Shown here: positions 42,701 to 61,771 of the stretch, in pieces | Position numbering within the stretch: position 1 is the stretch's first letter | Layout of the letters: the number at the start of each line of letters is the position of its first letter | Virus record (IMG/VR): IMGVR_UViG_3300035428_000399 | Span: 25,124 to 89,123 of that record | Origin: a virus | Lineage: Duplodnaviria > Caudoviricetes | DNA: 64,000 bases | Reading direction: 5' to 3' (one strand) | The notes under the pieces: generated by a model | Database searches by the model: none | Told to the model about the DNA's origin: nothing | The model's input: the letters and a program-made list of their open reading frames with translations, nothing else | Translations under genes and position numbers: made by a program

Positions 42701-44929
42701 CCGTTCCTGACTCACCTCGACGTGCGCACAACAGAGGTAACAAGCATCAATGCCTCCCGCTGTCCGCGAATGAAGACAGTGCTTGCATCGGGTTCTGACC
42801 TCACTGGTATATCTCTGGCAGAAACATCGCCTATCGATACTCTTGAATTGCCGGCATCCATGACGGAGCTGAATTTCGTCAACCTCCCGTATCTTACCTA
42901 TCCCGGAGGTTTGACAATCGCCGGTATGTCAAGCGTGAACCGTCTCATGCTCGCCGGATGTCCCAACATAGACCCATATAATCTTATCAATGGTATTGTC
43001 GGGTCGTCCAATCTTCGTTATCTCCGTTTGCCGGACGTAAACATCACGGCTCCTTCATCAATCCTCAAGTCACTTCGCACAAGCGGCGCCATCGGTCTCG
43101 ACCCGACGGGTAGTGCTTACGAGGAAAGCAACCAGTGCTCTGGCGTTACGGGTCGTTGGATAATGGAGGACCTTATCGACGATAACGAACTTGACAAGGC
43201 GCGTCCCGGAAGCCTCGCCGCGTACTTCCCGCAGTTGACCCTCTACAACTCGCAGTATTCATGCGTCCGTTTCGATGATACTGACGATGATTGCCAGAAC
43301 ATCACGAATCTCGACAACGGTACGAGCAAGGAAGAGTACGAGCCGAGCGGCCACTTCGTCAAGATATTCGATGCGGCTCACCCGTACCGATGCACCTACG
43401 ATTCCCGCGAGTCCAAGCTGCTCGCCCGTCAGATTATGGATACCAACTACAATCTGATGGCCGACGGCACCGAGTATGATCCGACGGACCAAGCAGGTGA
43501 AGGTTTCGATGTGATGCTCGGTTTCGGCCGATATTGGTATAAGGGAGTCAATGACTTCAAGAACCAGAAGAAGTATCTTTTTGCTTGTAGCTTTGCCTCT
43601 CAGCCACTCTCTACGGCAATGAAAACCAATCGCGAGAAACTGGCTGATATTCTCGTCAAGGCGTATTCATGCGTCTACACGACCAATAACGGTACAGCTC
43701 TCTCGAAGGGTGACGACTACGAGATAGTCGACAACGCCAATATGAATGTCTATGAACTCGATGTCGAGGGCATGAAGCAGGTCCGCTGGCCCGGACTCAA
43801 CAATGCACAGATCGGCGCTGTGTTCGTAGACGAGAATGACAAGATTGTAGGTACGTTCAATATGGCTGTAAGTCATTCATTGTTCGATTTCACCTACGGC
43901 GATTATGTGTTCTGCGATGTACCGAGTGGTGCCAAGAAAATAATATTTACGTCCCCGACGGGTTTCGATGATCTCGAAGCCATTGCGGTTGACAGTGCCG
44001 CTATCGAGGCTATCGAACCAGATTGGGTATGGGTACCCATGCGCTTCGTCGGCATCTACGGCATGAGTGTCGACGCTCTTATGCGCCCTCGCTCAATCAG
44101 TGGCGTAAGGACTCGCACAGGTACCGGTACGTCGGTAACGAATGCCGATTGGAAGTACGATAACGAGGGTAACATTACGAATACCTCCGTTCCTACCTCC
44201 ACGATGAACTACACCTATGCCGATATACTCAATCTGATTGAAATGCGCGGCAAGGGATTCCACGGCATCAGTTATGAAATAAGCAAGGACATCGCCAATC
44301 TCGTGATGGCGTTGACTGGCACTCGCGACATTCAGGCTTACGCCGGATATGGATGTGGCTCGCAGTATACTACGGGACAGAACAATTTCAATACCTATGG
44401 CAAGGTAACGAGAAAGTATTCCGGCGGCAATATCGGCAACATCATCTTCGGTATTCAGAACTTCGTGGGCTGTAACTGGGAAATCATGGACCTCATCGCC
44501 GCCAACGTGCCGTCTTTTGCCCAGTTCAAGAAAGATAAGCGTATCGCTACAAGCTCGTACCCGATTGATGCGAAATACCATGTAGTCCGCAACTATCAGA
44601 CAAAAGAAGAAAGCGTAATCCAGGGACTCAACACATCTGGTTACTGTATCGGCCGTGTTAAATTCGGTAGATACTGCGATGTAATCGCCTCGCGTGTAAC
44701 CACCGACAACAGCAAGTGGAATAAAAACTACTCTGACTGTATGTGGTACACCCATGACAGAGGCCGGTGCGTCGGTCGGTCGAGCAACGTTGCGGTCGCG
44801 TATGGCGGTCTCGTCTTCTCGAACGCGAATGACGCTTCTTCGTTCTCGGGCGCGTATGTCAGCTCTCGGCTCGCCTTCAGCGGAAATTACGAAATAGTTG
44901 AAACAGCGGAATGCGTGGAGGTAGCATAA
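36764..44929 (+). CDS. Giant tail fibre/adhesin (2721 aa), DGR target 1
   Basis: Beta-rich domains, CotH-kinase-like segment, LRR-like repeats and a C-terminal C-type-lectin-like domain containing VR1. Confidence 0.85.
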   Translation: MGLNNKTNLKSQADLIRYEDGEGKNTAERVGKVIAEIITNADLSLTTETTERVATDNALQQSVTIASNTATTAYNEAKDAKTKVSAAQSTANDAKTTANAAKAVTDTKGRPGGLATLDSDGKVPANQLPGYVDDVVEFNATVSGVTSQMASSAHKSTDAGCMVVYDTDHDTFILAVSKIAISDATEWSAVKRPIKGSNIATSDLEVGEAQKLNVTDYWQINDGSAILRPSQFTYYNNWLDGDSFGEGTLNGRVPKAGKIYTCTSNNKTFRWSGSELVTIGSDLALGRTASTAFPGDAGAQLEETVSNYGNLIIQNESHINSIGILPCDGQWDGKGTAPTSGVWLIPSEAYENAVCFESYGNTDFYGYAPEVYNSDEQYNPGYIYRIGDGLFRIVNNKLESTSGSAVGNTYNATVEIPLPAGEYYSDIMAETQTHNVLTAVFNEGKASLGLTITFAIGPSSWKTYQYVGPNTTSPQFLNVNNWIDMAGMSAGAEAIINVDALCPRKVAGYYDKGSAIDAILELQNASGIKYAKSGLVITFRTGEYAWEAYQFTGEVSDFSNKDLWKQFGGGGTVKTSATPEKDGKDAFSTGGAYDMQQNAFDHLDVDQDAENHIIKAINKLGNEMGQSISIPKSNGGGSVSGSSLNIYLENPAVYAAFGSEISVRAAIKSVTFDGQGSNVTEVLGVIRRLEIIDATSGLTLWSEAINQNSSTSPTNYSFKYDFTPYFSEASARDFTIVAYDAEGNVKRRTITVTAVDVTCTSVQTLNYTTGSVLEVGGSTKNLLMYKFANNVSKLGVKVTTEMFFNGEWKKLGESVITDSYSHSISIDPCNVFGGNEKLAHGSYAIRISGEDVASGVKGNVIYSSIMCVDSKSTQPIVSIRYNDINNGTIRLYDNLEVEVAAYTPGKTSTAASVYIDGIEVISTDIGTSQTEIVRKQIQGYDTDGSDTISIYAKSGDSQTNPITVTVVGSAISAIIKEGALFGFDFASRSNAETDHTISNNGYTMQVNGSNWSSNGFVKYLDEMSLRIAENVTAKIPYAPFGTAATERTNGMAFQFAFATNNIKDDEAKLMECYDPDSGAGFYICGNKAVLFCKNGTPSVITRSFKCNEKHTVAIVVEPSTITVKRGSTDYSTIKLYFDGEEAGSIGYIANSGAILNQKQIDFDGTDGDFYLYYTLAYDSYYEWAQAFQNYLCKLTNTDEMIKEFTDEDVLDNQNRPSMDKFKEKGIPYYVVVAPQATFDTFDGDINTSTKFECTLFYFDPARPWRSFKAEHVQWRRQGTTSAKRPIKNDRFYLRKNKGWKITPLNPDYTNEDALKTYELFEIGYIRVGLNTIPVAIITVKVDYSDSSMANDCGVCDMMNATFRALGSDYITPAQRAFDGTWSKSDVTVTGLQMNHSTANHPIAAFRATNDSLSDAWFHARGNWKEDKGEQVALGFKDTPGYNLGCKNYGDFVEFFGKASFNAAGKFVSQESLTEIMARFKATEGLDTSKLYLLSQYCGRDYVFMRYSGGEWARSNGSMKQINGKWVIQGDVLNPVSGFELITYDAMDWFMGVGSIDDMMAPVATQSSWVSKLNLGQPTYPAWTQYFECMVDDDQLQEDLAMGRKVPYELFNVLKFCDSCDYSKAALANTWKQLWRENAWKYMSVQSLIAYYTFTDYLAAVDQQAKNMQPMFFLEDGCWVENGVYHTPSAMEPVRMYFNKVYDCDTCNGKDNDGGNTIPAELDPAEDDKCYAGRGSILWNNLRRCDNQEMVADANGNTLTLPGVVATMRNLPEIDGIGAGPFSPKGALYYFVQKRILFWPKVVCTYDCESKYIRYSEKYTDIYYYALHGSGRQALPRFIEQRWRIRDGYYQTGDFKDASHVLGGRIGAKTGAVIKFRAGKSGYYGIGNDGGNVTQGMYLKAGEYGTFTNFQHGDNILLYIYQADQMSEIDLSQISLDPNFQFSMMKLAEKIVIGSTNHRQSWRLSPGNTGFLTNMNLGDLPFLTHLDVRTTEVTSINASRCPRMKTVLASGSDLTGISLAETSPIDTLELPASMTELNFVNLPYLTYPGGLTIAGMSSVNRLMLAGCPNIDPYNLINGIVGSSNLRYLRLPDVNITAPSSILKSLRTSGAIGLDPTGSAYEESNQCSGVTGRWIMEDLIDDNELDKARPGSLAAYFPQLTLYNSQYSCVRFDDTDDDCQNITNLDNGTSKEEYEPSGHFVKIFDAAHPYRCTYDSRESKLLARQIMDTNYNLMADGTEYDPTDQAGEGFDVMLGFGRYWYKGVNDFKNQKKYLFACSFASQPLSTAMKTNREKLADILVKAYSCVYTTNNGTALSKGDDYEIVDNANMNVYELDVEGMKQVRWPGLNNAQIGAVFVDENDKIVGTFNMAVSHSLFDFTYGDYVFCDVPSGAKKIIFTSPTGFDDLEAIAVDSAAIEAIEPDWVWVPMRFVGIYGMSVDALMRPRSISGVRTRTGTGTSVTNADWKYDNEGNITNTSVPTSTMNYTYADILNLIEMRGKGFHGISYEISKDIANLVMALTGTRDIQAYAGYGCGSQYTTGQNNFNTYGKVTRKYSGGNIGNIIFGIQNFVGCNWEIMDLIAANVPSFAQFKKDKRIATSSYPIDAKYHVVRNYQTKEESVIQGLNTSGYCIGRVKFGRYCDVIASRVTTDNSKWNKNYSDCMWYTHDRGRCVGRSSNVAVAYGGLVFSNANDASSFSGAYVSSRLAFSGNYEIVETAECVEVA
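44762..44878 (+). repeat. DGR variable repeat VR1
   Basis: 117-nt ungapped match to TR with 20 mismatches, all at TR adenines. Confidence 0.97.
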
Positions 44930-44940
44930 CGAAAAGCGTC

Positions 44941-44976
44941 GCTTCGGTTTCGGGCAACAAAGCCCGGAGCCGAAGC
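44941..44976 (+). other. GC-rich hairpin downstream of VR1 (candidate DGR target-recognition element)
   Basis: GCTTCGGTTTCGGGC-AACAAA-GCCCGGAGCCGAAGC: 15-bp stem with 2 G-T pairs, no T tract. Confidence 0.6.
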
Positions 44977-45054
44977 CCGTTCCATATTGTCAAACCCTTA
45001 AAATCAAGAGATAACAAGGAAAAAGAAACTTTCAAAAAAGGTAGAACCTTCCAT

Positions 45055-45171
45055 AGCCGGTGCGTCGGTCGGTCGAACAACAATGCGAACGCGAATGGCG
45101 GTCTCGTCTACTCGAACGCGAATAACGCTTCTTCGAACTCGAACACGAATAACAGCTCTCGGCTCACATTA
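45055..45171 (+). repeat. DGR template repeat TR
   Basis: 12 AAC/AAT codons in the target reading frame; lies between VR1 and the RT gene; followed by a stem (45183-45263) and a GAAA-loop hairpin (45274-45287). Confidence 0.97.
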
Positions 45172-45326
45172 AGGAATAAAACGGTGCTCCCTCACCGTCA
45201 ACATAATCGCAAGACCCTGGACGATGTCGCGTACATCAATCTATTCTGCGAGGAAGGTGCACCTCGGCAACAGCAGACGAAAGTCTGGAAAGCGGAAAAA
45301 TCTCGGAAGTCCTGAAGGCTTTAATT

Positions 45327-46826
45327 ATGGAAAAGATTTTTGACATACCATTTATGGATGTGGACCTCCCGGCAAAAACTCCGGAGCGCGACACTGTGTC
45401 GTTTCCGTTGTATAATCTATTGCCGGAGATCATCGATGACAAGAATCTTGAAGAAAGTTTCGACGACCTTGTAGGCAATCTCGAAAATAAATATCAACGT
45501 GAATACCACAAAAGCAAAAAGGCTGATACCCTAAAAAATCTCAAGAAGGAACTATCGGACGGTACGTTCTTTCTTGCCCGTGAAGAACTGCGGGAGTTGT
45601 ATGTCAGGGATGGATACAAGCCCCGAATAGTCCATGCGCCTCCGGTTTATAAGAGAATCGGAGTACAAGCAGTCATGAGGGTTGTCGAGAAATATATTTA
45701 CCCGACACTCATTACGAATACAGCCGCGAGCATCAAGGGCCGTGGTATGCACTGGCTGCACCATATTGTAGAGGAGGACATAAAGGCAGACCCGACCAAC
45801 ATGCAAAATTACGGGCAGAGCGATGTTTTCCACTATTACGACAGCATCGTTCAGGAAATGATGAAGGCTATTGTCAGGGAGTATATTGGCGACCCCGTAG
45901 CCCTGAAATACCTGGATAATTTCATTGAACTGATGCCTGAAGGTCTTTCCAAAGGGCTGCGTTCCTCTCAAGGTCTTGCCAATCTTTATTTGTCTGCGGT
46001 TGATAAAATCATGTGTCAGAATGTGAGCTATCACACCGTTGAGATAGATAATAAAGATGAGGTTATGGCCCAGGGGCGCGGCAGGGTCTATACTGATAAG
46101 GGAGACGAGATTCATTATCATTATTACCGTTATTGTGACGACATAGTATTCTTCGCCTCCACAAAAACCGAATGCTGGAAATTGTATGACCTATTGAAAT
46201 CTGAGCTTGAAAAACTTGGATTGAAGATAAAAGACAATTTCGCAATAAGACCTATATCTGAAGGACTTGACTTTCTTGGCTTCAAGACATTTGGTAAATG
46301 GGAAACCGTCAAAGGGCAGCAGCATTGGGAAGTCTATTCGCGCCTCCGAAAGAGAATCAAAGTTAAAGCGGCGAGAGCATTACATAGGGTTAAATCCCGC
46401 AAGCGTCGCCAACAGATAATAGGCTCATTCAAAGGTATGGCCTGCCATGCCGATTGCAAACATCTATATTTCAAATTAACTGGACAACATATGGCAAAAT
46501 TCAGCGAATTGGGGTTGAAATATACTCCGGCAGATGGTAAAAAACGATTCAGCTGCCAGCATATGTCGCTTGGCTCGATAACAAACAGACCAATTGAGCT
46601 TCTGGACTACGAGAAAGACATCAAGACACGTTGGGGAGAATCCCGATATGTCGTGCTGTTCCACTTTGTAGGTGATGTGACAGAATACAAATTCTTCACG
46701 GACAGCGAAGAAATGAAGTCTTTGCTCGACCAGATGAAAGATCGGGGACTTCTCCCCGGCATGGTAGAGACAACAATCGTGCAGAAGCAGGGCACCGGCG
46801 CTCTACGAATTTATTCATTCTCATAA
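45327..46826 (+). CDS. DGR reverse transcriptase with C-terminal extension
   Basis: ASIKGRG, GLSKGLRSSQ.LANLYL, YYRYCDD (46131-46142) and GLDFLG motifs. Confidence 0.95.
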   Translation: MEKIFDIPFMDVDLPAKTPERDTVSFPLYNLLPEIIDDKNLEESFDDLVGNLENKYQREYHKSKKADTLKNLKKELSDGTFFLAREELRELYVRDGYKPRIVHAPPVYKRIGVQAVMRVVEKYIYPTLITNTAASIKGRGMHWLHHIVEEDIKADPTNMQNYGQSDVFHYYDSIVQEMMKAIVREYIGDPVALKYLDNFIELMPEGLSKGLRSSQGLANLYLSAVDKIMCQNVSYHTVEIDNKDEVMAQGRGRVYTDKGDEIHYHYYRYCDDIVFFASTKTECWKLYDLLKSELEKLGLKIKDNFAIRPISEGLDFLGFKTFGKWETVKGQQHWEVYSRLRKRIKVKAARALHRVKSRKRRQQIIGSFKGMACHADCKHLYFKLTGQHMAKFSELGLKYTPADGKKRFSCQHMSLGSITNRPIELLDYEKDIKTRWGESRYVVLFHFVGDVTEYKFFTDSEEMKSLLDQMKDRGLLPGMVETTIVQKQGTGALRIYSFS

Positions 46827-46836
46827 TATTCCGAAC

Positions 46837-47334
46837 ATGGAAAAAAGATACGGCGCGCCAGGCCCGCAGAATGGTCTGGAGAAGATCGGAACAAAGAAGT
46901 GGGCTGTTTTCTACGGCTTCGGCAAAGATACCGAGGACGCAGAGACCGGCTATAACTGGTATCAGACATACGACCACCGACCGAGCCTCGACGAAATCAA
47001 GGCCGACATCGTGGCTGTAATCAAGGCCGAGAGCGACCTTAAACTTCGCTATGGCTATAAATGGAACGGCATGACCGTGGAATACTCTGAAGCTCTGAAA
47101 ACCGACCTCACGGGTATGCTCGTCGCCATTCAGGGAGGCATGATGCAGTTCCCGGTTGAAGTCAACCTCGGAAGCCAGTCGGACGGCACCCCGCAGGTCT
47201 ATCCATTCTCCAGCCTTGAAGAACTCGGAGCTGTCGCCGCCGGCATCGCTGCGCATCGTGCGCAAGTCAGCAAAGAGGAATGGGCGGCAATCCAGGCCCT
47301 CGGCGACATGGAAGAATACTCAGAAGTTCAGTAA
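46837..47334 (+). CDS. Hypothetical protein (possible tail fibre accessory)
   Basis: 165-aa ORF directly after RT; function inferred from position. Confidence 0.55.
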   Translation: MEKRYGAPGPQNGLEKIGTKKWAVFYGFGKDTEDAETGYNWYQTYDHRPSLDEIKADIVAVIKAESDLKLRYGYKWNGMTVEYSEALKTDLTGMLVAIQGGMMQFPVEVNLGSQSDGTPQVYPFSSLEELGAVAAGIAAHRAQVSKEEWAAIQALGDMEEYSEVQ

Positions 47335-47353
47335 CCTCTAAATACATTTCATC

Positions 47354-47674
47354 ATGAAAAAGAAAATATGCAATGACAAGACTGGGGACGACAAGAAGTT
47401 CCATGTCTTCTGTGAATTCATCATCGCGACCATTGTTGGTTCGCTCATGTCTCTTATCCACTTCCCATCAGCGTGGATAGCGGCCGGCATTGCCTATACT
47501 GTGGCACTTGCCTTCGGCATCTGGAAGGAAGTCAGGGATTCCAAACAAAAAGGAAATCATTTCTGTGTATGGGATCTCGCATGGGACCAGATAGGTTGTC
47601 TTGGTGGCGCGGTATTGGCTTTCTTTGCCAACTACTACACGTGGTATGACTTAACCGACAAACTATTCCAGTAA
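47354..47674 (+). CDS. Membrane protein (DK..H / KE..D / DL..D type)
   Basis: Hydrophobic helices with DKKFH, WKEVRD and WDLAWD motifs. Confidence 0.6.
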   Translation: MKKKICNDKTGDDKKFHVFCEFIIATIVGSLMSLIHFPSAWIAAGIAYTVALAFGIWKEVRDSKQKGNHFCVWDLAWDQIGCLGGAVLAFFANYYTWYDLTDKLFQ

Positions 47675-47713
47675 TCATCATGGCGGCTACTAGCTGCCCT
47701 AATTCCAATAACT

Positions 47714-48205
47714 ATGACTGAAACAATACTCGCAATCATTTCATTCGCAATCATCGCCATATACCTGATTGCATACGTTATCACAAGAGGATTACCATCC
47801 TCTATCAGTGTGACATACTACCATACCGAGTCGAAACTCCTTTTCCCAGTAGTGGTTGCGCTCTGCGCAGCTCTGGCATGGGTGCCACTCATACGGGTTA
47901 CGCCAGAAAACATCCAGTTTCTCGCATTCCTGATATGCGGCTCAATAGTTTTCGTAGCGGCATCGCCGGCATTCAAGGAGGATCTTGTAGGAAAAGTCCA
48001 TACCGGAGCTGCCGTCACTCTCGGTTTGGCTGCTCTGGCTTGGATTATAGTTGCATCAGGGATGCCCTACGCCACGATATTAGGTGTCATCATCGGGGTC
48101 GTACTCCGGCGCAACTTCGTCTTTTGGCTTGAAGCCGGCATCCTTATCGACATCTATACGAATTTATTTGTACTACTTCATATTTGCAGTTCTGCAGGCG
48201 CGTGA
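47714..48205 (+). CDS. Multi-pass membrane protein
   Basis: Five to six hydrophobic segments; LPSSISVTYY motif. Confidence 0.65.
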   Translation: MTETILAIISFAIIAIYLIAYVITRGLPSSISVTYYHTESKLLFPVVVALCAALAWVPLIRVTPENIQFLAFLICGSIVFVAASPAFKEDLVGKVHTGAAVTLGLAALAWIIVASGMPYATILGVIIGVVLRRNFVFWLEAGILIDIYTNLFVLLHICSSAGA

Positions 48206-48268
48206 GCGTCGAAGGAGCGTTCAATGTTCGGGAGCGTCAGCAATGGCGCTCCTTTTAATTTGAAAATC

Positions 48269-48356
48269 TTGCAGTTATGATTAAATAATCCTCTCCAAAT
48301 TTGCGTATATGATTATTTGTTTGTAACTTTGCATATACCAATACGATAAACATCAA
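48269..48356 (+). promoter_or_regulatory. Repeated phage promoter module, copy e
   Basis: TTGCAGTTATGATTA (48269) and TTGCGTATATGATTA (48301); -7 TAACTTTG 48324-48331. Confidence 0.85.
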
Positions 48357-48361
48357 AGCTA

Positions 48362-48613
48362 ATGAGCGCGATATACATACTTGAAGGTTTACTGATCTAC
48401 CTCTACGGATTCGACCACAATCCGCCGCATATCCATGTGCGCAGAGGATCCGAACAATTCACAATCACAATCAAGGATAGGATTGTAGAGGGCAGAGCAA
48501 AGGCGAAGTCCATTGCTTTGGTAAATGAGTTTCTCGACTCGCACGAAACCGAAGTTATGGAACTCTGGGAGAAAGCCCAGCGCGGAGAACAAATTACAAA
48601 GATTAACCGTTAA
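48362..48613 (+). CDS. DUF4160-family putative toxin
   Basis: IYLYGFDHNPPHIHV motif; LWEKA C-terminus. Confidence 0.85.
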   Translation: MSAIYILEGLLIYLYGFDHNPPHIHVRRGSEQFTITIKDRIVEGRAKAKSIALVNEFLDSHETEVMELWEKAQRGEQITKINR

Positions 48614-48625
48614 TTCCCTACCAAT

Positions 48626-48865
48626 ATGTACATACAAGTTACAGACGTTGAATACGGAGGGAACTACACCCTCATCTGCACCTTCAGCGATGGTGCTGTG
48701 AAAAATGTAGACATGACCCCGGTGCTCGATGCCCCCGCGTTCAAGGCGCTAAAGGACATAGAGCAGTTCAAGCAGTTCGGCCTTGACGAAACTATCTTTT
48801 GGGCCAACGGAGCGGACATTGCTCCCGAATGGCTCTACGACAATGGCGTTGCCTGCCATCCTTGA
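48626..48865 (+). CDS. DUF2442-family putative antitoxin
   Basis: V.DVEY, L..TFSDG and TIFWANGADIAPEWLY motifs; adjacent to the DUF4160 gene. Confidence 0.85.
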   Translation: MYIQVTDVEYGGNYTLICTFSDGAVKNVDMTPVLDAPAFKALKDIEQFKQFGLDETIFWANGADIAPEWLYDNGVACHP

Positions 48866-49017
48866 CAGATAAAACGAGGAAATAACAAAAGCATAACATT
48901 ACGACCCTGCCACCTGCGGCGGGGTCTATTTTTTGCCCCCAACTTTAATCATATATGCAAAAAGTGGTGCAGAACTAATTTCAGTCCATGCTCTATATAA
49001 TCATATTGATAAATTTA

Positions 49018-49110
49018 TTGCAGATTTGATTAAAATAATCTCTCCAAAATTTGCGTATATGATTATATTTTCGTAATTTTGTATATGCAAATAAGATGTT
49101 TAATCAAAAA
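49018..49110 (+). promoter_or_regulatory. Repeated phage promoter module, copy f
   Basis: TTGCAGATTTGATTA (49018) and TTGCGTATATGATTA (49051); -7 TAATTTTG 49074-49081. Confidence 0.88.
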
Positions 49111-49121
49111 CCGAAAGAACG

Positions 49122-49460
49122 ATGAAAAAAGAACTCAACATATATGAACCCTATGTAAAAGAACTTTGGGACTTCTATCAAAACGAAACCAAAGAAGCCG
49201 GACTCACATTCGCCGAACACTGCTACTGCGAGTTTGCCACTGGTCCCGATATGACCGGCGCACTCGAACTCGGAGGATTCTGCCCCGACAACGAGAATAC
49301 TCAAGAGTATGCGAACATGACCGAAGAAGAGCAGAAAGCCGAATTTGAAGTACGGTTCAAATACTTCATAAAGAAAGCAGGCGAAATCCTCGGCCAACAG
49401 TTCCCCGATCAGCCTCTCTCAGAAATCGAAGCCAACGCAAAAAAAGTTCTCGGATACTAA
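49122..49460 (+). CDS. Hypothetical acidic protein
   Basis: 112-aa ORF after promoter copy f. Confidence 0.65.
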   Translation: MKKELNIYEPYVKELWDFYQNETKEAGLTFAEHCYCEFATGPDMTGALELGGFCPDNENTQEYANMTEEEQKAEFEVRFKYFIKKAGEILGQQFPDQPLSEIEANAKKVLGY

Positions 49461-49550
49461 TCCAAATAAATATAAAGTATAGGACAGTTTTCATGGCATT
49501 GTCAGGATACCGGAGAAAGAATCATAGCCGGAGAAAAGAAAACAATATAC

Positions 49551-49832
49551 ATGACTGACGATAAAGGTCATGTATGGAAAGAAGAATGTTACAAAGGCTA
49601 TGGCATTTTCGGCGGCAAGGACTTCTACGAGTTGCTTGCCGAAATGAACGGCAAAGGGTCTGATCGCATTGCGGGTATAGACCTTGCGTTTGGCATGACC
49701 CCGGATGGCCGCTGTCAATATCCAAATGCAGACAACCCGAATCTTTGTTATCCAACTTTGGCTACCGAACCGAGATCCTTCCACGGCCAGCAGCCGGAAA
49801 TAGACATGAAACAAGGATTCCCCGACGCATAG
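49551..49832 (+). CDS. Hypothetical phage protein
   Basis: YKGYGIFGGKDFYELLAEMN motif. Confidence 0.65.
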   Translation: MTDDKGHVWKEECYKGYGIFGGKDFYELLAEMNGKGSDRIAGIDLAFGMTPDGRCQYPNADNPNLCYPTLATEPRSFHGQQPEIDMKQGFPDA

Positions 49833-49896
49833 TTTAACGAAGAATAGCGGAACCATCAACTACCGACTCAAATGCAAATAAGAAATACTAATCAAA

Positions 49897-50130: not shown

Positions 50131-50138
50131 TATCAATT

Positions 50139-51463: not shown

Positions 51464-51465
51464 CT

Positions 51466-52070: not shown

Positions 52071-52133
52071 TGAGCGCGCGAGAATATATATAACTTTGAA
52101 CACATAATAGAAAATCAATCAAAAAATTACATA

Positions 52134-53396: not shown

Positions 53397-53408
53397 ACCC
53401 GACAACTG

Positions 53409-53924: not shown

Positions 53925-53925
53925 G

Positions 53926-54612: not shown

Positions 54613-54618
54613 AACAGA

Positions 54619-55134
54619 ATGAAAAAGGCAATAATAATTCTCACTATTTTGCTCCTTGCATCAGTCCTCGCTAACGTGATGCTATGGAACCGAGCCGGTC
54701 CCAAGGAGGTGGTGGAAAAGGTAATTACTACCTACGATACGATTCCATACCCTAAGCCCGTCCCAGTCGATAGCGTAGTTCTTCGATATGTTACCGAGAA
54801 ACTACCGGCCGCAGATCAACCCAGTCTACCGACAGCCTCCGTTGAGACGGTCGTAGATTCGATGGTTTGCCAAGCGCCCAAGGACAGTGTAGAGGTCATA
54901 ATACCGATTACCCAAAAGATATATGAAGACAGCACTTTCCGGGCCTATGTGAGCGGTTATCACCCGGCACTGGACAGCATTCAGATTTTCCAACGTAAAG
55001 AGACCATCTATATAAGGTCGCCCACCAAGAATAAGCGATGGGGAATCGGTATCCAAGCCGGGTTCGGACTGACACCGCACAGAGTTCAGCCGTACATAGG
55101 GATAGGGATTTCCTATAATATCATTACATTTTAA
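54619..55134 (+). CDS. Membrane-anchored lysis accessory (spanin-like)
   Basis: N-terminal TM helix and WGIGIQAGFG...PYIGIGISY C-terminus; follows the endolysin; a hairpin terminator follows at about 55152. Confidence 0.6.
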   Translation: MKKAIIILTILLLASVLANVMLWNRAGPKEVVEKVITTYDTIPYPKPVPVDSVVLRYVTEKLPAADQPSLPTASVETVVDSMVCQAPKDSVEVIIPITQKIYEDSTFRAYVSGYHPALDSIQIFQRKETIYIRSPTKNKRWGIGIQAGFGLTPHRVQPYIGIGISYNIITF

Positions 55135-55212
55135 GGTCTCTTTTCATTGAATAAGGCAATCCTTCGGGGTTGCCTTATATATTATCAATATGATTATATA
55201 TGATGATGAAAA

Positions 55213-55304
55213 TTGCAGATATGATTAAATTTTTAGGTCTAAAATTTGCGTATATGATTATTTATTTGTAATTTTGTGTATGCAGATATGATGATTTAAT
55301 CAAA
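55213..55304 (+). promoter_or_regulatory. Repeated phage promoter module, copy g
   Basis: TTGCAGATATGATTA (55213), TTGCGTATATGATTA (55246) and ATGCAGATATGATGA (55280); -7 TAATTTTG 55269-55276. Confidence 0.88.
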
Positions 55305-55315
55305 CTAAAAAGACA

Positions 55316-55852
55316 ATGAAAACAAGAGAAATCATAAAGAAAGCGATGGAAATCCTGAAGAGCGTGAAAGTAAAATCCGAATTCGACATGATACAGGATT
55401 GGTACGTGAGCAACGGCTACGACGCCACGTTCGACAAGCAGATGAAAGGCTACTTTGCCGCCATCAGCCCATTCGGAGAATCCGAACTCCATCAGGCAAT
55501 GTGCGATGTCTGGAACGCTACCCTGACATATTACTACACTCCAGCCCGCGAAGAAGAGTGTGAGATTGAAAAAGCACTCACAGAAGCCCAGAGAATCCGC
55601 CGTTCAGTAACCGAAGCGGATTGGGCCAAAGGTGTAGCTCACTACGAAGTAGTCAAGACTAACAAAGGACAGAAAGTCCTGATTACATACCGCGACGGCA
55701 GCAAGGGACTCCGAAAAATCTACGAAGAACCGAGAAAAGACCAGGTACTGAACTTTGATGCCTGCGAGAAGGAACTCATCGACCTCGCAGAACTCGGGAG
55801 CCACGATTTCCGTTCGGCACTCGCCGCCCTCGTTGCGAAGTATAACGCATAA
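55316..55852 (+). CDS. Hypothetical protein
   Basis: 178-aa ORF after promoter copy g. Confidence 0.7.
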   Translation: MKTREIIKKAMEILKSVKVKSEFDMIQDWYVSNGYDATFDKQMKGYFAAISPFGESELHQAMCDVWNATLTYYYTPAREEECEIEKALTEAQRIRRSVTEADWAKGVAHYEVVKTNKGQKVLITYRDGSKGLRKIYEEPRKDQVLNFDACEKELIDLAELGSHDFRSALAALVAKYNA

Positions 55853-55863
55853 ATAACAATAAT

Positions 55864-56139
55864 ATGAAGTACATCAAAAGAATCATCGTTGGCATAGAAA
55901 GCCGTCAGGAAGCCAACGACGTGGCAGACCACCAGAACGACCTCGGCAAGATAAATCACGATCGGCGAGTGATATTCGCGGGCGAGGGGGATAAGAGCAA
56001 GACGATAGTCCCCGACTGGGCGCCGCTAATTTTCATTGCCATTGCCACAACAGAAGCCGCCATTAAAGAAATTGCTGAAGAATTCTTCGGTGAGGTTCCA
56101 ATTCTCTTTGAAGTCGAAGACGTAAAGGAAAACGCCTGA
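55864..56139 (+). CDS. Hypothetical protein
   Basis: 91-aa co-oriented ORF. Confidence 0.6.
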   Translation: MKYIKRIIVGIESRQEANDVADHQNDLGKINHDRRVIFAGEGDKSKTIVPDWAPLIFIAIATTEAAIKEIAEEFFGEVPILFEVEDVKENA

Positions 56140-56140
56140 T

Positions 56141-56542
56141 ATGGGAAATGATCTTCTCAATATTGCAAGCGCGGCCAAGCAGGGAGTCTTAGACGAAAAA
56201 GCCCAAGCTCTCAAGGCACGGAAGGAGCGAAGAAAAAAGGAACGGACTGCCGCAGAACACGCCTACGAAGTATTCAAAAGCACCTTAGCGCAGTTACTCG
56301 GTATCAAGTCCTATAAGATTAGACCATCAGAACTGAAAAGCCGAAAAGACTGCGTGATAATAGAAGACACCGGCGGCCGCAAGTTCGAGATTCATTATAC
56401 GAAAGTCATGACGCCTGACGGCAAACACTTCGGAGGCGGAGACTGCGATTACAATATCAATGCGCAATGGGGTACGGATACATGGTATCAATACAGCGTG
56501 GCAATGGGTGCCACGACAGTTGCGCAACAACTAGGCCGATAG
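56141..56542 (+). CDS. Hypothetical protein
   Basis: 133-aa co-oriented ORF. Confidence 0.6.
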   Translation: MGNDLLNIASAAKQGVLDEKAQALKARKERRKKERTAAEHAYEVFKSTLAQLLGIKSYKIRPSELKSRKDCVIIEDTGGRKFEIHYTKVMTPDGKHFGGGDCDYNINAQWGTDTWYQYSVAMGATTVAQQLGR

Positions 56543-56611
56543 TTGGCCCAGACAGAAACAGCAAACTCGCTCAAATGCAAATAAGATAGACAAACGCAAA
56601 TAAGATATCTA

Positions 56612-57799
56612 ATGGAAACAATTTTAACAAAAAAGAACTGCCATAGAGCAGCCACGGTTCTGCCGGTCAACCACACAGACGGTCAGGAACCGCTTCAATT
56701 CAACTACCGCGCCATCCGCAAAAATATGGGTATGTTCAGTTGCCGTTTCTCCCATACGGTAACATCACCCAACGGTGACGCTATCGAAGTAAGCGATTAC
56801 GACTTGAAAGAATGGGTGGTCGCATCATGGAAATACGAAGAGAACCTCGAAGACCTCTATAGTGACGGTGTAAGGGCGTACAGCAATACCAGCCACACAC
56901 CGGAAGAACGCGCTCTGCGCGACATCTACGAGTATGAAGAAGAGATACAGAAAGACCTCAAGATTCTCCCCGAATCATATCGTTCTGACTACTTCAATCA
57001 GTATAAAGAGCGCGCCCGCCAGCTTTTCTATAAGCATTCAGGCATAGCCAGCGCTATGATTGTCGGCCCGGCTCGTTTTCCGGCGGCACGCATGGAGCGA
57101 GCCAACAATGCCTATGACTCCATGTTCCAAGATTTCCGCAAATGGCGAGAAAATTTCTTCAAGAAAGTCGAGCGCGAGAAAGAAGCCGCAAAGTCGCCGG
57201 AGCAGAAGGCCGACGAAGCATGGGAAAAGGTAAAAGGGGATATTTTGTCTACCGTCGGCTCTCTGTGGGCAATCGACCTGCAGAATGCCCCATACTCTCG
57301 TCCACTATTCGTTTCCAATCTATACGGCAGGATGGAAACTCTTGCCAAAAACGGAAAGGTCGACCTCTTGCGACGGGCCGGAGAGTTGATAAAGGAACTC
57401 AACGTAAAGGCTAAGGAGAAGGGCGCGAAAGAAATCTTCACGAGCCGCCACAAGTTTTGGAAGCTCGTGGAGAAAGACAAGGAAACCCTCGCCAAGCAAG
57501 CCGAGAATGCCAACCGCGAGAACGAGGTGTTTGAACTCTACAACTGCACCGTAGTGAAGAACTATGAAGAAGACCGTCTGCAAATCTTCCACGAAGAGAA
57601 GCCGGCACCGGAAGTTCTCAGTCTTCTCAAGAAAGAAGCCTGGAAATGGTCGAGAAACAACGTCTGCTGGCAACGTCAGCTCACAAGAAACGCCTGCTAT
57701 AGTGCAGCCCGCGTTATTCTCGGAGGCCCCAATGGATTATCCAACACCGAGGAAGTAACCAAACTCGTCAAGAAACTATGGGACGGCCACCAAGAGTAA
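56612..57799 (+). CDS. Hypothetical protein with mobile-element-type C-terminal domain
   Basis: SAMIVGPARFP and DRLQIF...KP...LK...WKWS....WQRQLT.NA motifs recalled from plasmid/ICE proteins. Confidence 0.7.
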   Translation: METILTKKNCHRAATVLPVNHTDGQEPLQFNYRAIRKNMGMFSCRFSHTVTSPNGDAIEVSDYDLKEWVVASWKYEENLEDLYSDGVRAYSNTSHTPEERALRDIYEYEEEIQKDLKILPESYRSDYFNQYKERARQLFYKHSGIASAMIVGPARFPAARMERANNAYDSMFQDFRKWRENFFKKVEREKEAAKSPEQKADEAWEKVKGDILSTVGSLWAIDLQNAPYSRPLFVSNLYGRMETLAKNGKVDLLRRAGELIKELNVKAKEKGAKEIFTSRHKFWKLVEKDKETLAKQAENANRENEVFELYNCTVVKNYEEDRLQIFHEEKPAPEVLSLLKKEAWKWSRNNVCWQRQLTRNACYSAARVILGGPNGLSNTEEVTKLVKKLWDGHQE

Positions 57800-57981
57800 A
57801 ACGTATCAGCAAGGAGGAGGGAGAGCGCGTGGATATCCACCGCTTTCCTAACTTCAGCGCGTCCGGAAGTGTGATCGGAATGAGAAATCTCTACTACGGG
57901 AGAAATGCGCTACTTGTACGTTGTGGCTCCTTTATATATAATGTATCATTAGAACCGGCAATTTACGAAAACGCAAAATGA
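57778..57981 (+). CDS. Small hypothetical phage protein
   Basis: FPNF...GS..GM...YYG..ALLVRCG.FIYNV motif; overlaps both neighbours. Confidence 0.55.
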   Translation: MGRPPRVKRISKEEGERVDIHRFPNFSASGSVIGMRNLYYGRNALLVRCGSFIYNVSLEPAIYENAK

Positions 57982-58421
57982 AATATACCATAGACCCCAC
58001 AATTCCCTTTGAGGGCGCAGTCCTCACAAGCATGAACGACAACATTCACAGCGATTACGGCGGTGAAACTCTCGAAGAACTGAAAGCAGCACACAATAAT
58101 CCCAACCTCGAAGCAGTGAGCCCTGAAAAAGTAACGGAACTTGTCAACCAGCACCGGGCATCGCTCAACAAAGAACCGTTCAAGGAAATCGACGAGGAAC
58201 GATACTATGACGCAATGGACTGTCTGCCACCCAAGAGAATGTTACGCGACGCTTTCTTCGTGGGAGAGTGCTACCAATATGACCTCTATCCTTTCTGCTT
58301 CAAAATAGGTGGCAGATACTTCGAGGGCCGCAGAACCGTCGACACTCCGAAGGAGACGCTTTATGCGGAGATAAAAGAATTTTACGATAACCTCATCAAA
58401 TCCGAAGCCAATGACGATTGA
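57978..58421 (+). CDS. Hypothetical protein (DUF1419-like C-terminus)
   Basis: EERYYDAMDCLPP...FFVGE motif. Confidence 0.6.
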   Translation: MKYTIDPTIPFEGAVLTSMNDNIHSDYGGETLEELKAAHNNPNLEAVSPEKVTELVNQHRASLNKEPFKEIDEERYYDAMDCLPPKRMLRDAFFVGECYQYDLYPFCFKIGGRYFEGRRTVDTPKETLYAEIKEFYDNLIKSEANDD

Positions 58422-59061
58422 ACTCAACATAGAATTTCATGAAAGCGAGATACCGCCCCGGTGCCGCTTACCGAGACACGTCAGCCATAAGGAAACTGTA
58501 AAGGTCAAGATAAAAGAGGCGAGCAAAGAGGAGGCGCCGTTGGCATTCATCGTCCACAGCCTGAAAGAACGTCCGATGGAGGTCAGGCTGTACAAGAACC
58601 AACTCTATAAAGAAGCCCGCATTTCGTTCTACAACGGCAAGGAATCCGAAGAATATCCTTTCGATGCAATTCCCTGGGAGACCGTGTTCAGAAAATACAC
58701 TGGGTATGGGGAGTATATCTCCAAGTCCGAATACATCGCATATCTCAAACTCACAAGCCGTGAATATCTCATTGTTGATGGTGTTGTCTTTCGCAGATGT
58801 TACGAGCCATTCTACCGTATTACAACATTCGGCTACCGAGGGTGTGGCACTGCCATTTTTCCGGAATTCTCAGATAAGAGCCGCAAGGAAGTCCCCGGTT
58901 ACAGTGCTCTCGATAAGGATAGAGCGATAGCCGATGCTATCAAAATTGCAGAAGGCCGTGGCGATGAGAAAGACATAGATTCAATAAAAGAAATGGCTCA
59001 TGGGCCGATAGAAGTAATCATTCCATCGGCATGCAAGCGTAAATTCAGACCTCAAATATAA
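58411..59061 (+). CDS. Hypothetical protein
   Basis: 216-aa coupled ORF. Confidence 0.65.
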   Translation: MTIELNIEFHESEIPPRCRLPRHVSHKETVKVKIKEASKEEAPLAFIVHSLKERPMEVRLYKNQLYKEARISFYNGKESEEYPFDAIPWETVFRKYTGYGEYISKSEYIAYLKLTSREYLIVDGVVFRRCYEPFYRITTFGYRGCGTAIFPEFSDKSRKEVPGYSALDKDRAIADAIKIAEGRGDEKDIDSIKEMAHGPIEVIIPSACKRKFRPQI

Positions 59062-59065
59062 AGTT

Positions 59066-59425
59066 ATGGGTGAAATAGCAGAAATGATGCTCGACGGGAC
59101 TCTCGATTCAGTAACCGGCGAGTACCTCGGTGACCCATGTGGTTATCCGAGGAGTATGACTGACGGCACATATTGGCCGGACAGAGATAATCTCAGACGG
59201 CGTTCCCGCCAATCAATCAACTCTCTATGCAGTCGCATAGGAGTGACAGATAAGAAGAGTCAGCAGGAACTTGTGAGTGCTTTCCTTCAGTGTATGAGGC
59301 TTGCACGTCTTCCCAAGATGCAGGCTCAAATCGAAATGGTATTTCTCCACCATAAAAATGATTTCAAGATCTTCCTAAGCGAGATTGAGAAAGAAATTAT
59401 CAACACTCCAGAAAAAGACGAATAA
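59066..59425 (+). CDS. Hypothetical protein
   Basis: MGEIAEMMLDG N-terminal motif. Confidence 0.6.
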   Translation: MGEIAEMMLDGTLDSVTGEYLGDPCGYPRSMTDGTYWPDRDNLRRRSRQSINSLCSRIGVTDKKSQQELVSAFLQCMRLARLPKMQAQIEMVFLHHKNDFKIFLSEIEKEIINTPEKDE

Positions 59426-59428
59426 ACC

Positions 59429-59758
59429 ATGACAGCATCAGCAATCAAATTCGTTCCATGGGACACCAAACCTCTCGAATCCCTCAAGGACAGCATTGCG
59501 TTCAAGATGAGAAGCCTCATCAATTCAGGCGCAAAACTCAACCGGGCGCAGAAGAATTGGATTACAAATCGCGTGAATAGTAATACTTATTTCAACAATG
59601 CCATACCCGTGCAGGGCTGGGCGTTTACATTCTCCGACGTCCTCAAGAAATTCGTGGTAAAGCAATGCGGTCAATGCGCAGAGTATTACGCCGTCGATAA
59701 AACTTCGTTGCGGGAATACCTCGGCTCCGGAATAGAGTATATTGTTGAAGTGAAATGA
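59429..59758 (+). CDS. Hypothetical protein
   Basis: 109-aa coupled ORF. Confidence 0.6.
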   Translation: MTASAIKFVPWDTKPLESLKDSIAFKMRSLINSGAKLNRAQKNWITNRVNSNTYFNNAIPVQGWAFTFSDVLKKFVVKQCGQCAEYYAVDKTSLREYLGSGIEYIVEVK

Positions 59759-60762
59759 GAATGTATAAACACGAAAAGGTAAGCATCATCCGTGAAACGG
59801 GGGAGAGAGTGGATGCTGTCGCTCCCATTGTCATATCTGCGAGTCGGAGTACGGACATACCGGCATTTCATTTAGATTGGTTTTTCAACCGCCTCAAGAG
59901 AGGATATTGCTCGTGGGTTAATCCGTTCAATCAAAAGGCGTCTTATGTCTCATTCCAAAATACAAGAGTGGTAGTGTTCTGGTCTAAAAATCCCGTAGCA
60001 CTCATAGACCGATTGAAGGAACTATCCAGCCGCAATATAAACTGCTATATCCAGTTTACTCTCAACGATTATGCGGCCGAAGGGTTTGAACCCAATATCC
60101 CTGAGCTAACTAAGCGAATAGATACATTCAAACGCCTCGTTGACATTTTAGGTGTGGGCTCCGTTATCTGGAGATACGACCCGGTCATTCTGACGGATAA
60201 TCTTCATATAGAAGACCACCTCGAAAGGATAGAGAAAATCGGTTGCGAACTCAATGGTTATTGTGAGAAACTTGTATTCAGTTTCGCAGACATCGCCGGG
60301 TATCGTAAAGTTCAGTACAATCTCATTCAAAGTGGAATAAAGTATGTCGATTTCAACCACGAAAGCATGACTAAATTTGCCGACAGTCTCACTCGACTAA
60401 ACAAGAACTTCGGTTTTGAAATCGCAACCTGCGGAGAGCAGATTGACTTGTGCAAGTTCGGCATCGAAAAGAATCGTTGCGTTGATCCCTTACTAATGGT
60501 CCGGCTATTCAAAGATGACGAAAGACTAATGTCATGGCTCGGCTATTCGGATATGTTTGGCGCCCCGGAATCCTTTCCCAAAGACCCCGGACAAAGGTCT
60601 GTATGTGGCTGTGTCCTCAGCAAGGACATCGGAGCATATAACACCTGCGGTCACGGCTGCGTATATTGCTATGCTAACGTAACACCGACATACGGCAAGC
60701 AGGGCTGTGTGCGGGCTCAAAGCGACACAAAACGCGAGTCAGTAATCTCTCAAGTAAATTGA
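59755..60762 (+). CDS. DUF1848-family Fe-S / radical-SAM-like protein
   Basis: IISASRSTDIPAF, VFWSKNP, WRYDP and SKDIGAYNTCGHGCVYCYAN (CxxxCxxC) motifs. Confidence 0.85.
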   Translation: MRMYKHEKVSIIRETGERVDAVAPIVISASRSTDIPAFHLDWFFNRLKRGYCSWVNPFNQKASYVSFQNTRVVVFWSKNPVALIDRLKELSSRNINCYIQFTLNDYAAEGFEPNIPELTKRIDTFKRLVDILGVGSVIWRYDPVILTDNLHIEDHLERIEKIGCELNGYCEKLVFSFADIAGYRKVQYNLIQSGIKYVDFNHESMTKFADSLTRLNKNFGFEIATCGEQIDLCKFGIEKNRCVDPLLMVRLFKDDERLMSWLGYSDMFGAPESFPKDPGQRSVCGCVLSKDIGAYNTCGHGCVYCYANVTPTYGKQGCVRAQSDTKRESVISQVN

Positions 60763-60763
60763 T

Positions 60764-60976
60764 ATGACAATAGAAATGACGATAGACCAGGCTCAAATCG
60801 TATTCAGCACCCTGGCCGATGAGATATACCGTATCTCGACGTGTATTGCACCTGAGAACCGCAAACAAAGTCGGATAGACACCATCAACGAATTACGGAA
60901 GCGCATCGGCGTTCAACTGATGAAAGCCGGGGCAATAGATGCCGAGTATTATAAGGCGGTTTGTGGCAGTCTGTAA
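60764..60976 (+). CDS. Hypothetical protein
   Basis: 70-aa co-oriented ORF. Confidence 0.55.
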   Translation: MTIEMTIDQAQIVFSTLADEIYRISTCIAPENRKQSRIDTINELRKRIGVQLMKAGAIDAEYYKAVCGSL

Positions 60977-61019
60977 AGAGCGTTAAATCGTGAATATGAT
61001 TAGCCCAACCGCCAAAAAA

Positions 61020-61112
61020 TTGCGTATATGATTAAAATAATCGCCCTAAAACTTGCGGAATTGATTATTTATGACTAACTTTGCAAGTGCAAATAAGATA
61101 CTTCTAATCAAA
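61020..61112 (+). promoter_or_regulatory. Repeated phage promoter module, copy h
   Basis: TTGCGTATATGATTA (61020) and TTGCGGAATTGATTA (61053); -7 TAACTTTG 61076-61083. Confidence 0.85.
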
Positions 61113-61125
61113 CAATCTCAAACAA

Positions 61126-61722
61126 ATGGAAGCAATCCAATTCAACAAAGAGACGTTGGTAGCCGTCTACGGCAACTGCAACGCCGTCGGCCGCAAGGCC
61201 ATCAAGGAACAGCTCGGAGAAAGACTTTCCGAAATCCTCCCCGTAACAGACCGTGTAAAAACCTTCAATGATGCGGTCGAGGAACTCGGCGAAGAACACG
61301 AAGCTGTAAAAGCCTACCGTGCCGTGGAGTGGTATCTCCGTAACCAAATGTCCGACATCAAGGCATACCTCCATCTACGCATCATCACCGCCGCCCTCAA
61401 TGAGGGATGGGAGCCCCAGTTTGTCGAGGGCGAGCGCCGCTGGTACGGGTGGTACGACCTCATCAGCAAGGAAGACTACGAGGCTCTTTCCGATGAAGAA
61501 AAGGGCCGGTGCGTCGGTCGGTCGTACAACAATGCGAACGCGTATGGCGGTCTCGTCTGCTCGTACGCGAATAGCGCTTCTTCGTACTCGGGCGCGAGTT
61601 TCAGCTCTCGGCTCACATTCAAAAGCGAAAAGCTGGCTGAGTATGCAGCCAAACAATTCATCGAAATTTACGCCGATCTCTGCTTCATCCCCAAAGCTCC
61701 GGACGCCAAGGAGTCGAAGTAA
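61126..61722 (+). CDS. Small protein carrying VR2 (DGR target 2)
   Basis: 198 aa, no signal peptide. DRVKTFNDA, LRIITAALNEGWEP and SRLTFKSEKLAEYAAKQF motifs flank the VR-encoded segment. Confidence 0.9.
   Translation: MEAIQFNKETLVAVYGNCNAVGRKAIKEQLGERLSEILPVTDRVKTFNDAVEELGEEHEAVKAYRAVEWYLRNQMSDIKAYLHLRIITAALNEGWEPQFVEGERRWYGWYDLISKEDYEALSDEEKGRCVGRSYNNANAYGGLVCSYANSASSYSGASFSSRLTFKSEKLAEYAAKQFIEIYADLCFIPKAPDAKESK
61504..61620 (+). repeat. DGR variable repeat VR2
   Basis: 117-nt ungapped match to TR with 14 mismatches, all at TR adenines. Confidence 0.97.
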
Positions 61723-61737
61723 CCGAAGTATTTCCTC

Positions 61738-61771
61738 CGTGGAGGCTCGATCGTGTAGACGAGCCTCCACG
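61738..61771 (+). other. Perfect 12-bp hairpin downstream of VR2 (candidate DGR target-recognition element)
   Basis: CGTGGAGGCTCG-ATCGTGTAGA-CGAGCCTCCACG, no T tract. Confidence 0.6.

Follow-up and report, generated by a model that had tools for sequence, protein, structure and literature searches.

In the provirus IMGVR_UViG_3300035428_000399 (Duplodnaviria; Caudoviricetes), a single template repeat (TR) of a diversity-generating retroelement (DGR) very probably rewrites two genes, a large one next to the retroelement and a small one 16.3 kb away, by DGR retrohoming in trans. DGRs are, to our knowledge, the only natural systems for targeted hypermutation of proteins outside vertebrate immunity, and they are densest in the phages of gut Bacteroidales. 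The window analysed here is a stretch of 64,000 nt (positions 25,124 to 89,123 of the record) at the right-hand end of a virus record that measures 89,123 bp and is classed as a complete provirus; coordinates are those of the window and features lie on its plus strand unless stated otherwise. The large target gene, T1, carries the variable repeat VR1, the small remote target gene, T2, carries VR2, and the DGR reverse transcriptase (RT) is encoded just downstream of TR. The proposal is based on differences between the repeats that are confined to adenines, on an invariant TR accompanied by variable VR1 and VR2, and on TR-specific bases found in VR2.

One template repeat and two variable repeats

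The non-coding TR (45055..45171) contains 31 adenines and 12 AAY codons and starts 177 nt after VR1 (44762..44878), which ends 51 nt before the stop codon of T1. VR2 (61504..61620) lies 16,333 nt downstream of TR. Both variable repeats align with TR without gaps over 117 nt, with 20 mismatches in VR1 and 14 in VR2. All 34 mismatches fall on TR adenines (31 sites) and none on the 86 non-adenine positions, a distribution for which random placement gives, by simple arithmetic, a probability of approximately (31/117)^34, or ~1e-20. VR1 and VR2 are read in the codon phase of TR, as follows from the sequence and the phases of the open reading frames (ORFs), and share its 12 AAY codons. When both strands of the whole 89,123-bp genome were scanned, these three copies of the repeat were the only ones found, and within this genome VR1 and VR2 have different substitutions at different adenines. 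The original prediction, made from the letters of the window, had described the gap-free alignments, the adenine-confined mismatches, the common frame and the twelve variable codons, all of which were reproduced here.

T1 (36764..44929; 2721 aa) is situated at the end of the head/portal module, after protease, capsid-like and portal-like genes. Its product matches phrog_14959 over the full length (2495 bits), is 55% identical to gp14 of phage BS-TP4, and is 25% identical to the DGR target of hankyphage over 1,181 aligned positions, the VR end included. That target was described as a putative tail fibre by its authors, who measured DGR activity on it (PMC12135933). No Pfam domain was detected in T1, a PDB sequence search with its end returned nothing, and modelling of its C-terminal part failed (predicted local distance difference test (pLDDT) score of 38). 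The designation of T1 as a virion adhesin in the original prediction is thus to be read as inference, for which gene position and homology to the hankyphage target make a virion role a reasonable assumption rather than a result.

T2 (61126..61722; 198 aa) carries VR2 as residues 127-165, followed by 33 conserved residues. Between T1 and T2, BLASTP aligned 42 residues; when the profiles of the two families were compared, exactly 44 columns aligned, and these correspond to the VR module. By these comparisons the two proteins share the 44-residue VR module only and are otherwise unrelated, in agreement with what had been predicted.

Variation was found in both repeats. Among ten contigs that come from different samples, the RT is identical and TR is 100% identical, but no two have the same VR1. 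Of the ten alleles, eight differ from TR at adenines only, one has a single non-adenine change and one (L177) an apparent indel near the 5' end. For VR2, four alleles were seen among six contigs in which the 163-aa neighbour gene is identical. As the contig listing shows similar places once, it overstates the evenness of the alleles, and recurrence counts, i.e. the number of blocks of the public assembly collection that hold an exact protein sequence, are fairer. The exact RT (499 aa) occurs in 278 blocks, the neighbour gene product (163 aa) in 207, the DUF1848 protein encoded upstream of T2 (335 aa) in 113, T2 (198 aa) in 25 and T1 (2721 aa) in 16. T2 is therefore polymorphic, since this short protein is ~8-fold rarer than the adjacent identical gene. 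VR2 alleles differ from TR at 13-19 adenines; those of three Muribaculaceae metagenome-assembled genomes (MAGs) have 0, 0 and 1 non-adenine mismatches to the TR of the window, and those of two metagenome contigs apparently differ at TR adenines only (judged by eye, uncounted).

A comparison with a relative, G001, gives a direction to this variation. Over 3 kb around T2 the window and G001 are 98.97% identical, and 19 of their 31 differences fall inside the 117-nt VR2, as against 0 in the other 480 nt of the T2 gene. The cassette of G001 has diverged (~85% identity around T1/TR) and its TR differs from that of the window at five positions, at each of which both VR2 copies have the base of their own TR (5/5). 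Of the remaining VR2 differences, thirteen fall where both TRs have A, and the last is an isolated T-to-C change. This pattern implies that information moved from the resident TR into VR2 since the two lineages split. Both VR1 and VR2 thus appear, from these alleles, to be live on an evolutionary timescale. The central claim of the original prediction, that one TR serves two targets 16.3 kb apart, is supported by comparative and population data, in which VR1 and VR2 vary at TR-adenine positions and TR is fixed; the outcome it had named as adverse, a VR2 that is invariant while VR1 varies, was checked on public assemblies and did not occur.

The same data bear on the alternative that VR2 is a relic, in which case cDNA would have ceased to enter this old copy of the module and VR1 would be the sole live target. 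A relic would drift at all bases, whereas the 86 non-adenine positions are free of differences from TR; moreover, the VR2 of G001 has the five lineage-specific bases of its own TR in spite of flanks that are 99% identical to the window, the exact T2 allele is some 8-fold rarer than the identical neighbour gene, and four VR2 alleles occur beside one identical form of that gene. The presence of the exact T2 allele of the window in 25 blocks, the TR-like 3' end of its VR2 and the damaged VR2 copies of relatives (both described below) would be in line with a relic, which we nevertheless consider very improbable.

We attach very little probability as well to the explanation that the variation of VR2 stems from DNA recombination with VR1 or TR, or from gene conversion by them, instead of from retrohoming of its own. 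Conversion by TR DNA would keep the adenines, at which the VR2 alleles do differ; the substitutions in VR2 and VR1 are different, so that VR2 is not a copy of VR1; and the differences come without accompanying non-adenine changes. What could be brought forward for it is that each genome holds three 117-nt repeats able to recombine and that the window and G001 form a mosaic, with 99% identity in the T2 region (60001-63000) compared to ~85% in the T1/TR region (43500-46800). Judging from this mosaic, DGR cassettes or accessory ends have evidently been exchanged among related prophages.

Retrohoming of one template into both T1 and T2 thus remains the explanation we follow.

Cassette, hairpins and a putative mechanism

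The RT gene (45327..46826) is a single open frame of 499 codons that encodes YCDD, an SQ motif and a C-terminal extension of ~110 aa, in accordance with the intact, YCDD-bearing enzyme of the original prediction. The protein matches phrog_1423 at 4e-65, and among solved structures it is best matched by a chain of 8ub7 (E 1.5e-10) that was deposited as 'Reverse transcriptase' and that we take to be the BPP-1 bRT. Against Pfam RVT_1 it scores 23.9 bits, below the cut-off of 29.6. Residues 389-498 (46491-46826) match a separate phage family of 105 aa, phrog_19665, and the C-terminal extension may be a fused accessory domain.

Between TR and the RT gene lies a spacer (45172..45326) with a small hairpin at 45181-45198 (ACGGTG / CACCGT, loop CTCCCT), 10 nt after TR. 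In the relative L100 the CTCCCT loop is kept and the stem is CGTGGTG / CACCACG instead. This hairpin could be part of a priming structure of the template RNA; in the TR-RT spacer of distant relatives no comparable conserved structure was evident. An ORF of 134 aa (44911..45315) runs across TR. It was rejected as a candidate Avd because it overlaps TR and, among families, matches nothing but the VR end of phrog_14959, which is the translated repeat; this ORF is probably spurious, and gene callers may report a false protein at this place.

Directly after the RT gene a conserved accessory gene (46837..47334; 165 aa) is found, homologous to the genes at the same position in BS-TP4 and hankyphage. 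Its product is 32% identical to BS-TP4 gp18 (annotated DUF4376; E 4e-31) and 28% identical to the product of a hankyphage gene annotated 'Avd' (E 3e-9), and has no Pfam or PDB match. By its sequence this protein is not a canonical Avd.

On the model of BPP-1 and hankyphage, a series of RNA and cDNA steps can be proposed, the comparative data speaking to the outcome and not to these steps. TR and the spacer would be transcribed, after which the RT, perhaps aided by the 165-aa post-RT protein, would copy the RNA to cDNA and misread adenines. The cDNA would then replace the homologous 117-nt stretch in the two genes, VR1 at 177 nt upstream of TR and VR2 at 16.3 kb downstream, and the distance would be irrelevant because the template RNA or cDNA acts in trans. 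A recipient would be marked by the shared repeat ending GCTCTCGGCTC, followed by the VR-type 3' end. In this manner a variable module of 39 codons, 12 of them AAY, would be grafted in two unrelated scaffolds and be diversified independently in each.

As regards this 3' edge, the sequence is CACATTA in TR and CGCCTTC in every VR1 allele and in the majority of VR2 alleles, the VR2 copies of the window and G001 having CACATTC. Such a binary state, without scatter, would fit an information-transfer boundary like the initiation of mutagenic homing (IMH) site, occasionally overrun, rather than mutagenesis.

Strong hairpins were found after both target genes. The one after T1 (44941..44975) begins 12 nt past the stop codon and has a 15-bp stem with two G-T pairs and a 6-nt loop; the one after T2 (61738..61771) begins 15 nt past the stop codon and has a perfect 12-bp stem and a 10-nt loop; neither is followed by a T tract. 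They are the second and fourth strongest 44-nt folds of the 89-kb genome, which makes their position unlikely by chance, and the T2 hairpin is one of three perfect stems of at least 10 bp in the genome. In BPP-1 the target hairpin abuts VR, whereas the present ones are separated from the VR ends by 62 and 117 nt. The original prediction had paired the two hairpins with a possible part in homing. Their reality, GC-richness, lack of a T tract and position after both stop codons stood, and the homing role found no support: a strong post-stop hairpin is present in only ~30% (28-35%) of T2 homologues, which leaves a general DGR target or homing signal unsupported. A function as terminators of independent transcription units is the more economical reading. 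A second candidate, a conserved hairpin within the coding sequence 14 nt after VR2, was suspected from single folds and rejected after covariation controls, as 47.7% of cells were paired compared to 45% in shuffles and no consensus structure emerged.

Upstream, T2 is preceded by a gap of 149 nt that holds TAACTTTG, a Bacteroidetes-type -7 promoter box (61076..61083), 43 nt before the start of T2. Three other gene starts (31196, 48362 and 52134) have the same octamer 30-43 nt before them, and the motif TAnnTTTG is over-represented in general (52 found versus 35 expected). With a promoter-like box upstream, a hairpin downstream and the excisionase and integrase genes nearby, T2 has the appearance of a transcription unit of its own. 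Elsewhere in the window, the strongest hairpin of the genome (52017-52060; 17-bp stem, -33.8 kcal/mol) is intergenic and is followed 31 nt later by this box (52091-52098), a terminator-then-promoter layout that resembles the one bracketing T2. The third-strongest hairpin (57813-57856) follows a primase-like gene.

A number of observations weigh against retrohoming into both genes, or against parts of this proposal. The T2 and T1 alleles of the window recur unchanged in 25 and 16 blocks, respectively, and turnover of the VRs is not fast in every lineage. The evidence consists of assembled sequences and not of reads, and as such speaks to an evolutionary timescale. The VR2 end of the window is TR-like at two of the three 3'-end positions, and if the 3' end acts as IMH, this allele might be a poorer recipient. 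A search with PF05635, the canonical Avd family, gave no match at E<=1 anywhere in the complete provirus, with working positive controls, and BPP-1 requires Avd. Two relatives have damaged VR2 copies. In L190 (GCA_948822595.1, T2 at 343-879) a 1-nt deletion in an A-rich codon pair cuts T2 to 178 aa; unless this is an error of assembly, the second target has been knocked out naturally in this relative. The other, a Barnesiella sp. WM24 prophage (G002/L002/L137), has a 6-nt in-frame deletion of two codons relative to its own TR, located at a short direct repeat (CGAAC ACGAAC), with the remaining differences at adenines only; this deletion may be a slippage product of cDNA synthesis. Finally, T2 may lie either inside or outside the virion, as weighed below.

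The T2 family and its possible role

T2 matches phrog_11581, a family of unknown function, at 3e-43, and has no signal peptide and no hydrophobic segment. In a profile search of 1.84 billion representatives, 1,776 representatives of 50%-identity clusters were recovered at E<=1e-10, nearly all of 160-260 aa; relatives were further found in IMG/VR (136) and at 39 loci in GTDB species representatives, mostly Bacteroidales genomes. The alignment of the family consists of a conserved helical N-terminal part with an invariant ALNEGWEPQF, the AAY-derived segment and a conserved tail ending in RLAFKS..LA.YAG.QF. For the N-terminal domain, neither fused nor longer forms were found, and the few members of 310-340 aa are without Pfam domain.

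Neither domain nor structure searches connect the family to a known fold. Pfam gave no domain in 50 members of the T2 family, and in a search of T1, T2, the TR-overlapping ORF, the post-RT gene and the neighbours of T2 it returned only DUF1848 and integrase domains. The AlphaFold model of T2 has an overall pLDDT of 75 and is below 50 in the VR segment, so that it is usable only for the N-terminal helical part, outside VR. When the model was compared with the PDB, Foldseek gave no match at E<=0.001 and VIA-align reached a Z score of 4.2 at best; the family profile gave chance-level matches only against PDB sequences, and the ESM Atlas matches were unnamed viral clusters only. For Quimbyvirus, Benler et al. 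described C-lectin domains in both of its targets (PMC8008677).

The association of the family with DGRs extends far beyond this provirus. Of the near-complete virus records that contain a T2 homologue (26), 17 have an RT homologue as well. When T2/RT pairs of further phages were tested, the VR of the T2 homologue matched the TR beside the resident RT in 17 of 19, with all or nearly all mismatches at adenines. The RTs of these pairs are only 28-56% identical to that of the window. As estimated from coordinates, the T2-family targets lie ~10-54 kb from the RT, on either strand, and no neighbour gene of T2 is conserved beyond close relatives. Two relatives (G003 and G004) are uninformative on T2, their contigs ending ~6-9 kb past TR. 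By these sequence matches the T2 family appears to be a habitual remote second target of the resident TR, tied to it despite shifting position, strand and neighbours, and this persistence argues for an important function.

What this function might be is suggested by gene context. Because T2 lies outside the structural module in a variable, accessory-type neighbourhood, with a promoter box and hairpin of its own and beside switch or integration genes (here and in phage BT-TP2), we lean slightly towards a non-structural role for T2, with production in the lysogen or at an early stage of infection; in conflicts between phage and host or between phages, its variable face would then bind a partner that can change. 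Conversely, T2 might be a virion component, namely a small accessory receptor-binding or adhesin subunit that is docked via its N-terminal helical domain, in which case both targets would bind host or mucus. The binding module is common to T2 and T1, a distant homologue in phage Versailles is annotated 'tail protein', and two-target phage DGRs with both targets read as receptor-binding proteins are known (PMC10743442); the absence of a signal peptide does not discriminate, as virion proteins also lack one. We regard a virion location as possible but rather doubtful, considering that T2 is outside the structural module here and that its homologues elsewhere lie 10-54 kb from the T1-abutting cassette, on either strand and without a conserved neighbour. 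In addition, the T2 gene follows repressor/Cro-type genes in BT-TP2 and stands among methyltransferase and PAPS-reductase genes in LoVEphage, and in the window the layout is moron-like, with a promoter box and a hairpin belonging to T2 itself next to the excisionase and integrase genes (xis/int).

Provirus, host and known systems

The provirus of 89 kb is integrase-bearing and temperate, and its DGR is of the hankyphage/LoVEphage lineage. It probably resided in a mouse-gut Muribaculaceae bacterium, given that the nearest T2 homologues are in Muribaculaceae MAGs and that an identical T2 protein is present in mouse-gut assemblies. On the 3' side of T2 the order is the 12-bp hairpin, two small genes, a small excisionase-like HTH_17 gene (62517..62717; precomputed Pfam match on an identical locus), the converging tyrosine integrase gene and the end of the provirus. 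The integrase (62804..64000, minus strand; Arm-DNA-bind_5, Phage_int_SAM_5 and Phage_integrase domains; phrog_1) thus marks the right provirus end, and longer contigs have host genes beyond it. The contigs L173 and L174 share the same prophage end and an identical T2, and continue into different host genes (FKBP/DUF4332/peptidase M13 versus Hc1/QueC/QueF/Wzz), which points to at least two integration sites or hosts. A DUF1848 protein (59755-60762; Pfam E 1.6e-90), an unusual accessory cargo for a phage, is encoded two genes upstream of T2. Concerning the assemblies, the longest contig with the exact RT was only 2-10 kb in 224 of the 278 blocks, whereas contigs with the exact T1 were nearly all of 50-200 kb. 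This fits assembly breaks at the polymorphic VR1, and if assemblies do break there, contig-based surveys would miss such DGRs.

A megablast of the DGR cassette against deposited phages gave no match. At the protein level BS-TP4 (PMC12694917) is the nearest deposited phage for both RT (43% identity) and T1 (55%), and it is absent from the tblastn matches of T2. BT-TP2, a cultured phage from the same study (PMC12694917), does combine a giant target with a T2 homologue, whose VR has 14 adenine-position mismatches to TR, mismatches at the repeat edge aside. The BT-TP2 record (PQ571279.1) starts inside the T2 homologue, part of which is repeated at both ends, so that the second target is split and unannotated; the paper describes targets of ~2000 aa only. 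With hankyphage (PMC6199706; PMC12135933) the locus shares an RT of 39% identity, a T1 homologous to the hankyphage target including the VR end, and a post-RT gene homologous to the one annotated 'Avd' there. DGR activity has been measured experimentally in hankyphage. That phage is described as transposable and not integrase-based, and no p00-type record is among the T2 tblastn matches, in which only BT-TP2 appears.

With the DGR of Bordetella phage BPP-1, the founding member of the family, the locus has in common the adenine-specific transfer from TR to VR, a related RT (the 8ub7 chain) and a VR near the 3' end of the gene. BPP-1 has one adjacent target (Mtd) and needs Avd, whereas two targets, one of them 16 kb off, and no PF05635 protein are found here. 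LoVEphage and Quimbyvirus, which presumably belong to the same phage group, are close in layout. Both have one TR and two VRs, with VR1 in a large protein near the structural genes and VR2 in a T2-family protein of ~195 aa, ~15 kb off in an accessory region. In LoVEphage (MW660583.1) TR is at 49393-49500, VR1 at 49679-49788 and VR2 at 33942-34112; the T2 homologue (QVQ57199.1) contains a VR of the TR located 15 kb away on the other strand, with 18 adenine mismatches and one non-adenine mismatch at the repeat edge. The arrangement of Quimbyvirus, in which one TR serves a target of the structural module and, in the accessory region, a second and remote one, was published in 2021 (PMC8008677). 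The RT of Quimbyvirus is reported to be split over three overlapping frames, compared to a single open frame here, and its second target is on the opposite strand near methyltransferases, compared to the same strand beside xis/int. The backbone differs from that of Quimbyvirus and LoVEphage too, being 89 kb and BS-TP4-like, with T1 nearest to BS-TP4 gp14. Membership of the candidate family 'Quimbyviridae' is doubtful, in view of the genome length of 89 kb (versus ~71-75 kb), the single-frame RT (versus a frameshifted one) and the BS-TP4-like T1 and RT.

A distal second VR has also been described in four inducible Bacteroidota prophage species (Nature 2025, PMC12629997); the targets of these species may or may not be of the T2 family. 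DGRs of the tentaclin type (PMC10743442) equally have one TR and two target genes of different topology. Both of those targets lie in the cassette, and one is a protein with an N-terminal C-lectin and Ig domains that is read as receptor-binding, in contrast to T2, which is without Ig domains, has its VR near the C-terminus and is remote from the cassette. Remote second targets of the T2 family have already been published (PMC8008677; for distal second VRs also PMC12629997), and the original prediction overrated the novelty of the arrangement. The details that distinguish the present locus are its single-frame RT, the T2 gene on the same strand and beside xis/int, the 89-kb BS-TP4-like backbone and the absence of a canonical Avd.

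The locus provides a clean and well-controlled case of one template feeding two unrelated proteins, in which the small remote target belongs to a conserved and common family and is not a curiosity of one phage. Pipelines that search near the RT only miss remote targets (Roux et al.), and records can split such targets or leave them unannotated, as illustrated by BT-TP2. More tentatively, the T2 family might form a large set of hypervariable intracellular binders, antibody-like, in temperate Bacteroidales phages. On this reading, which is possible but not likely, the promoter of T2 itself would drive its expression, in the lysogen or soon after infection, and the DGR would let it track a fast-changing host defence protein or a protein of a competing phage. 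If true, a single template would supply both the virion target and the intracellular target, as the two arms of an adaptive system.

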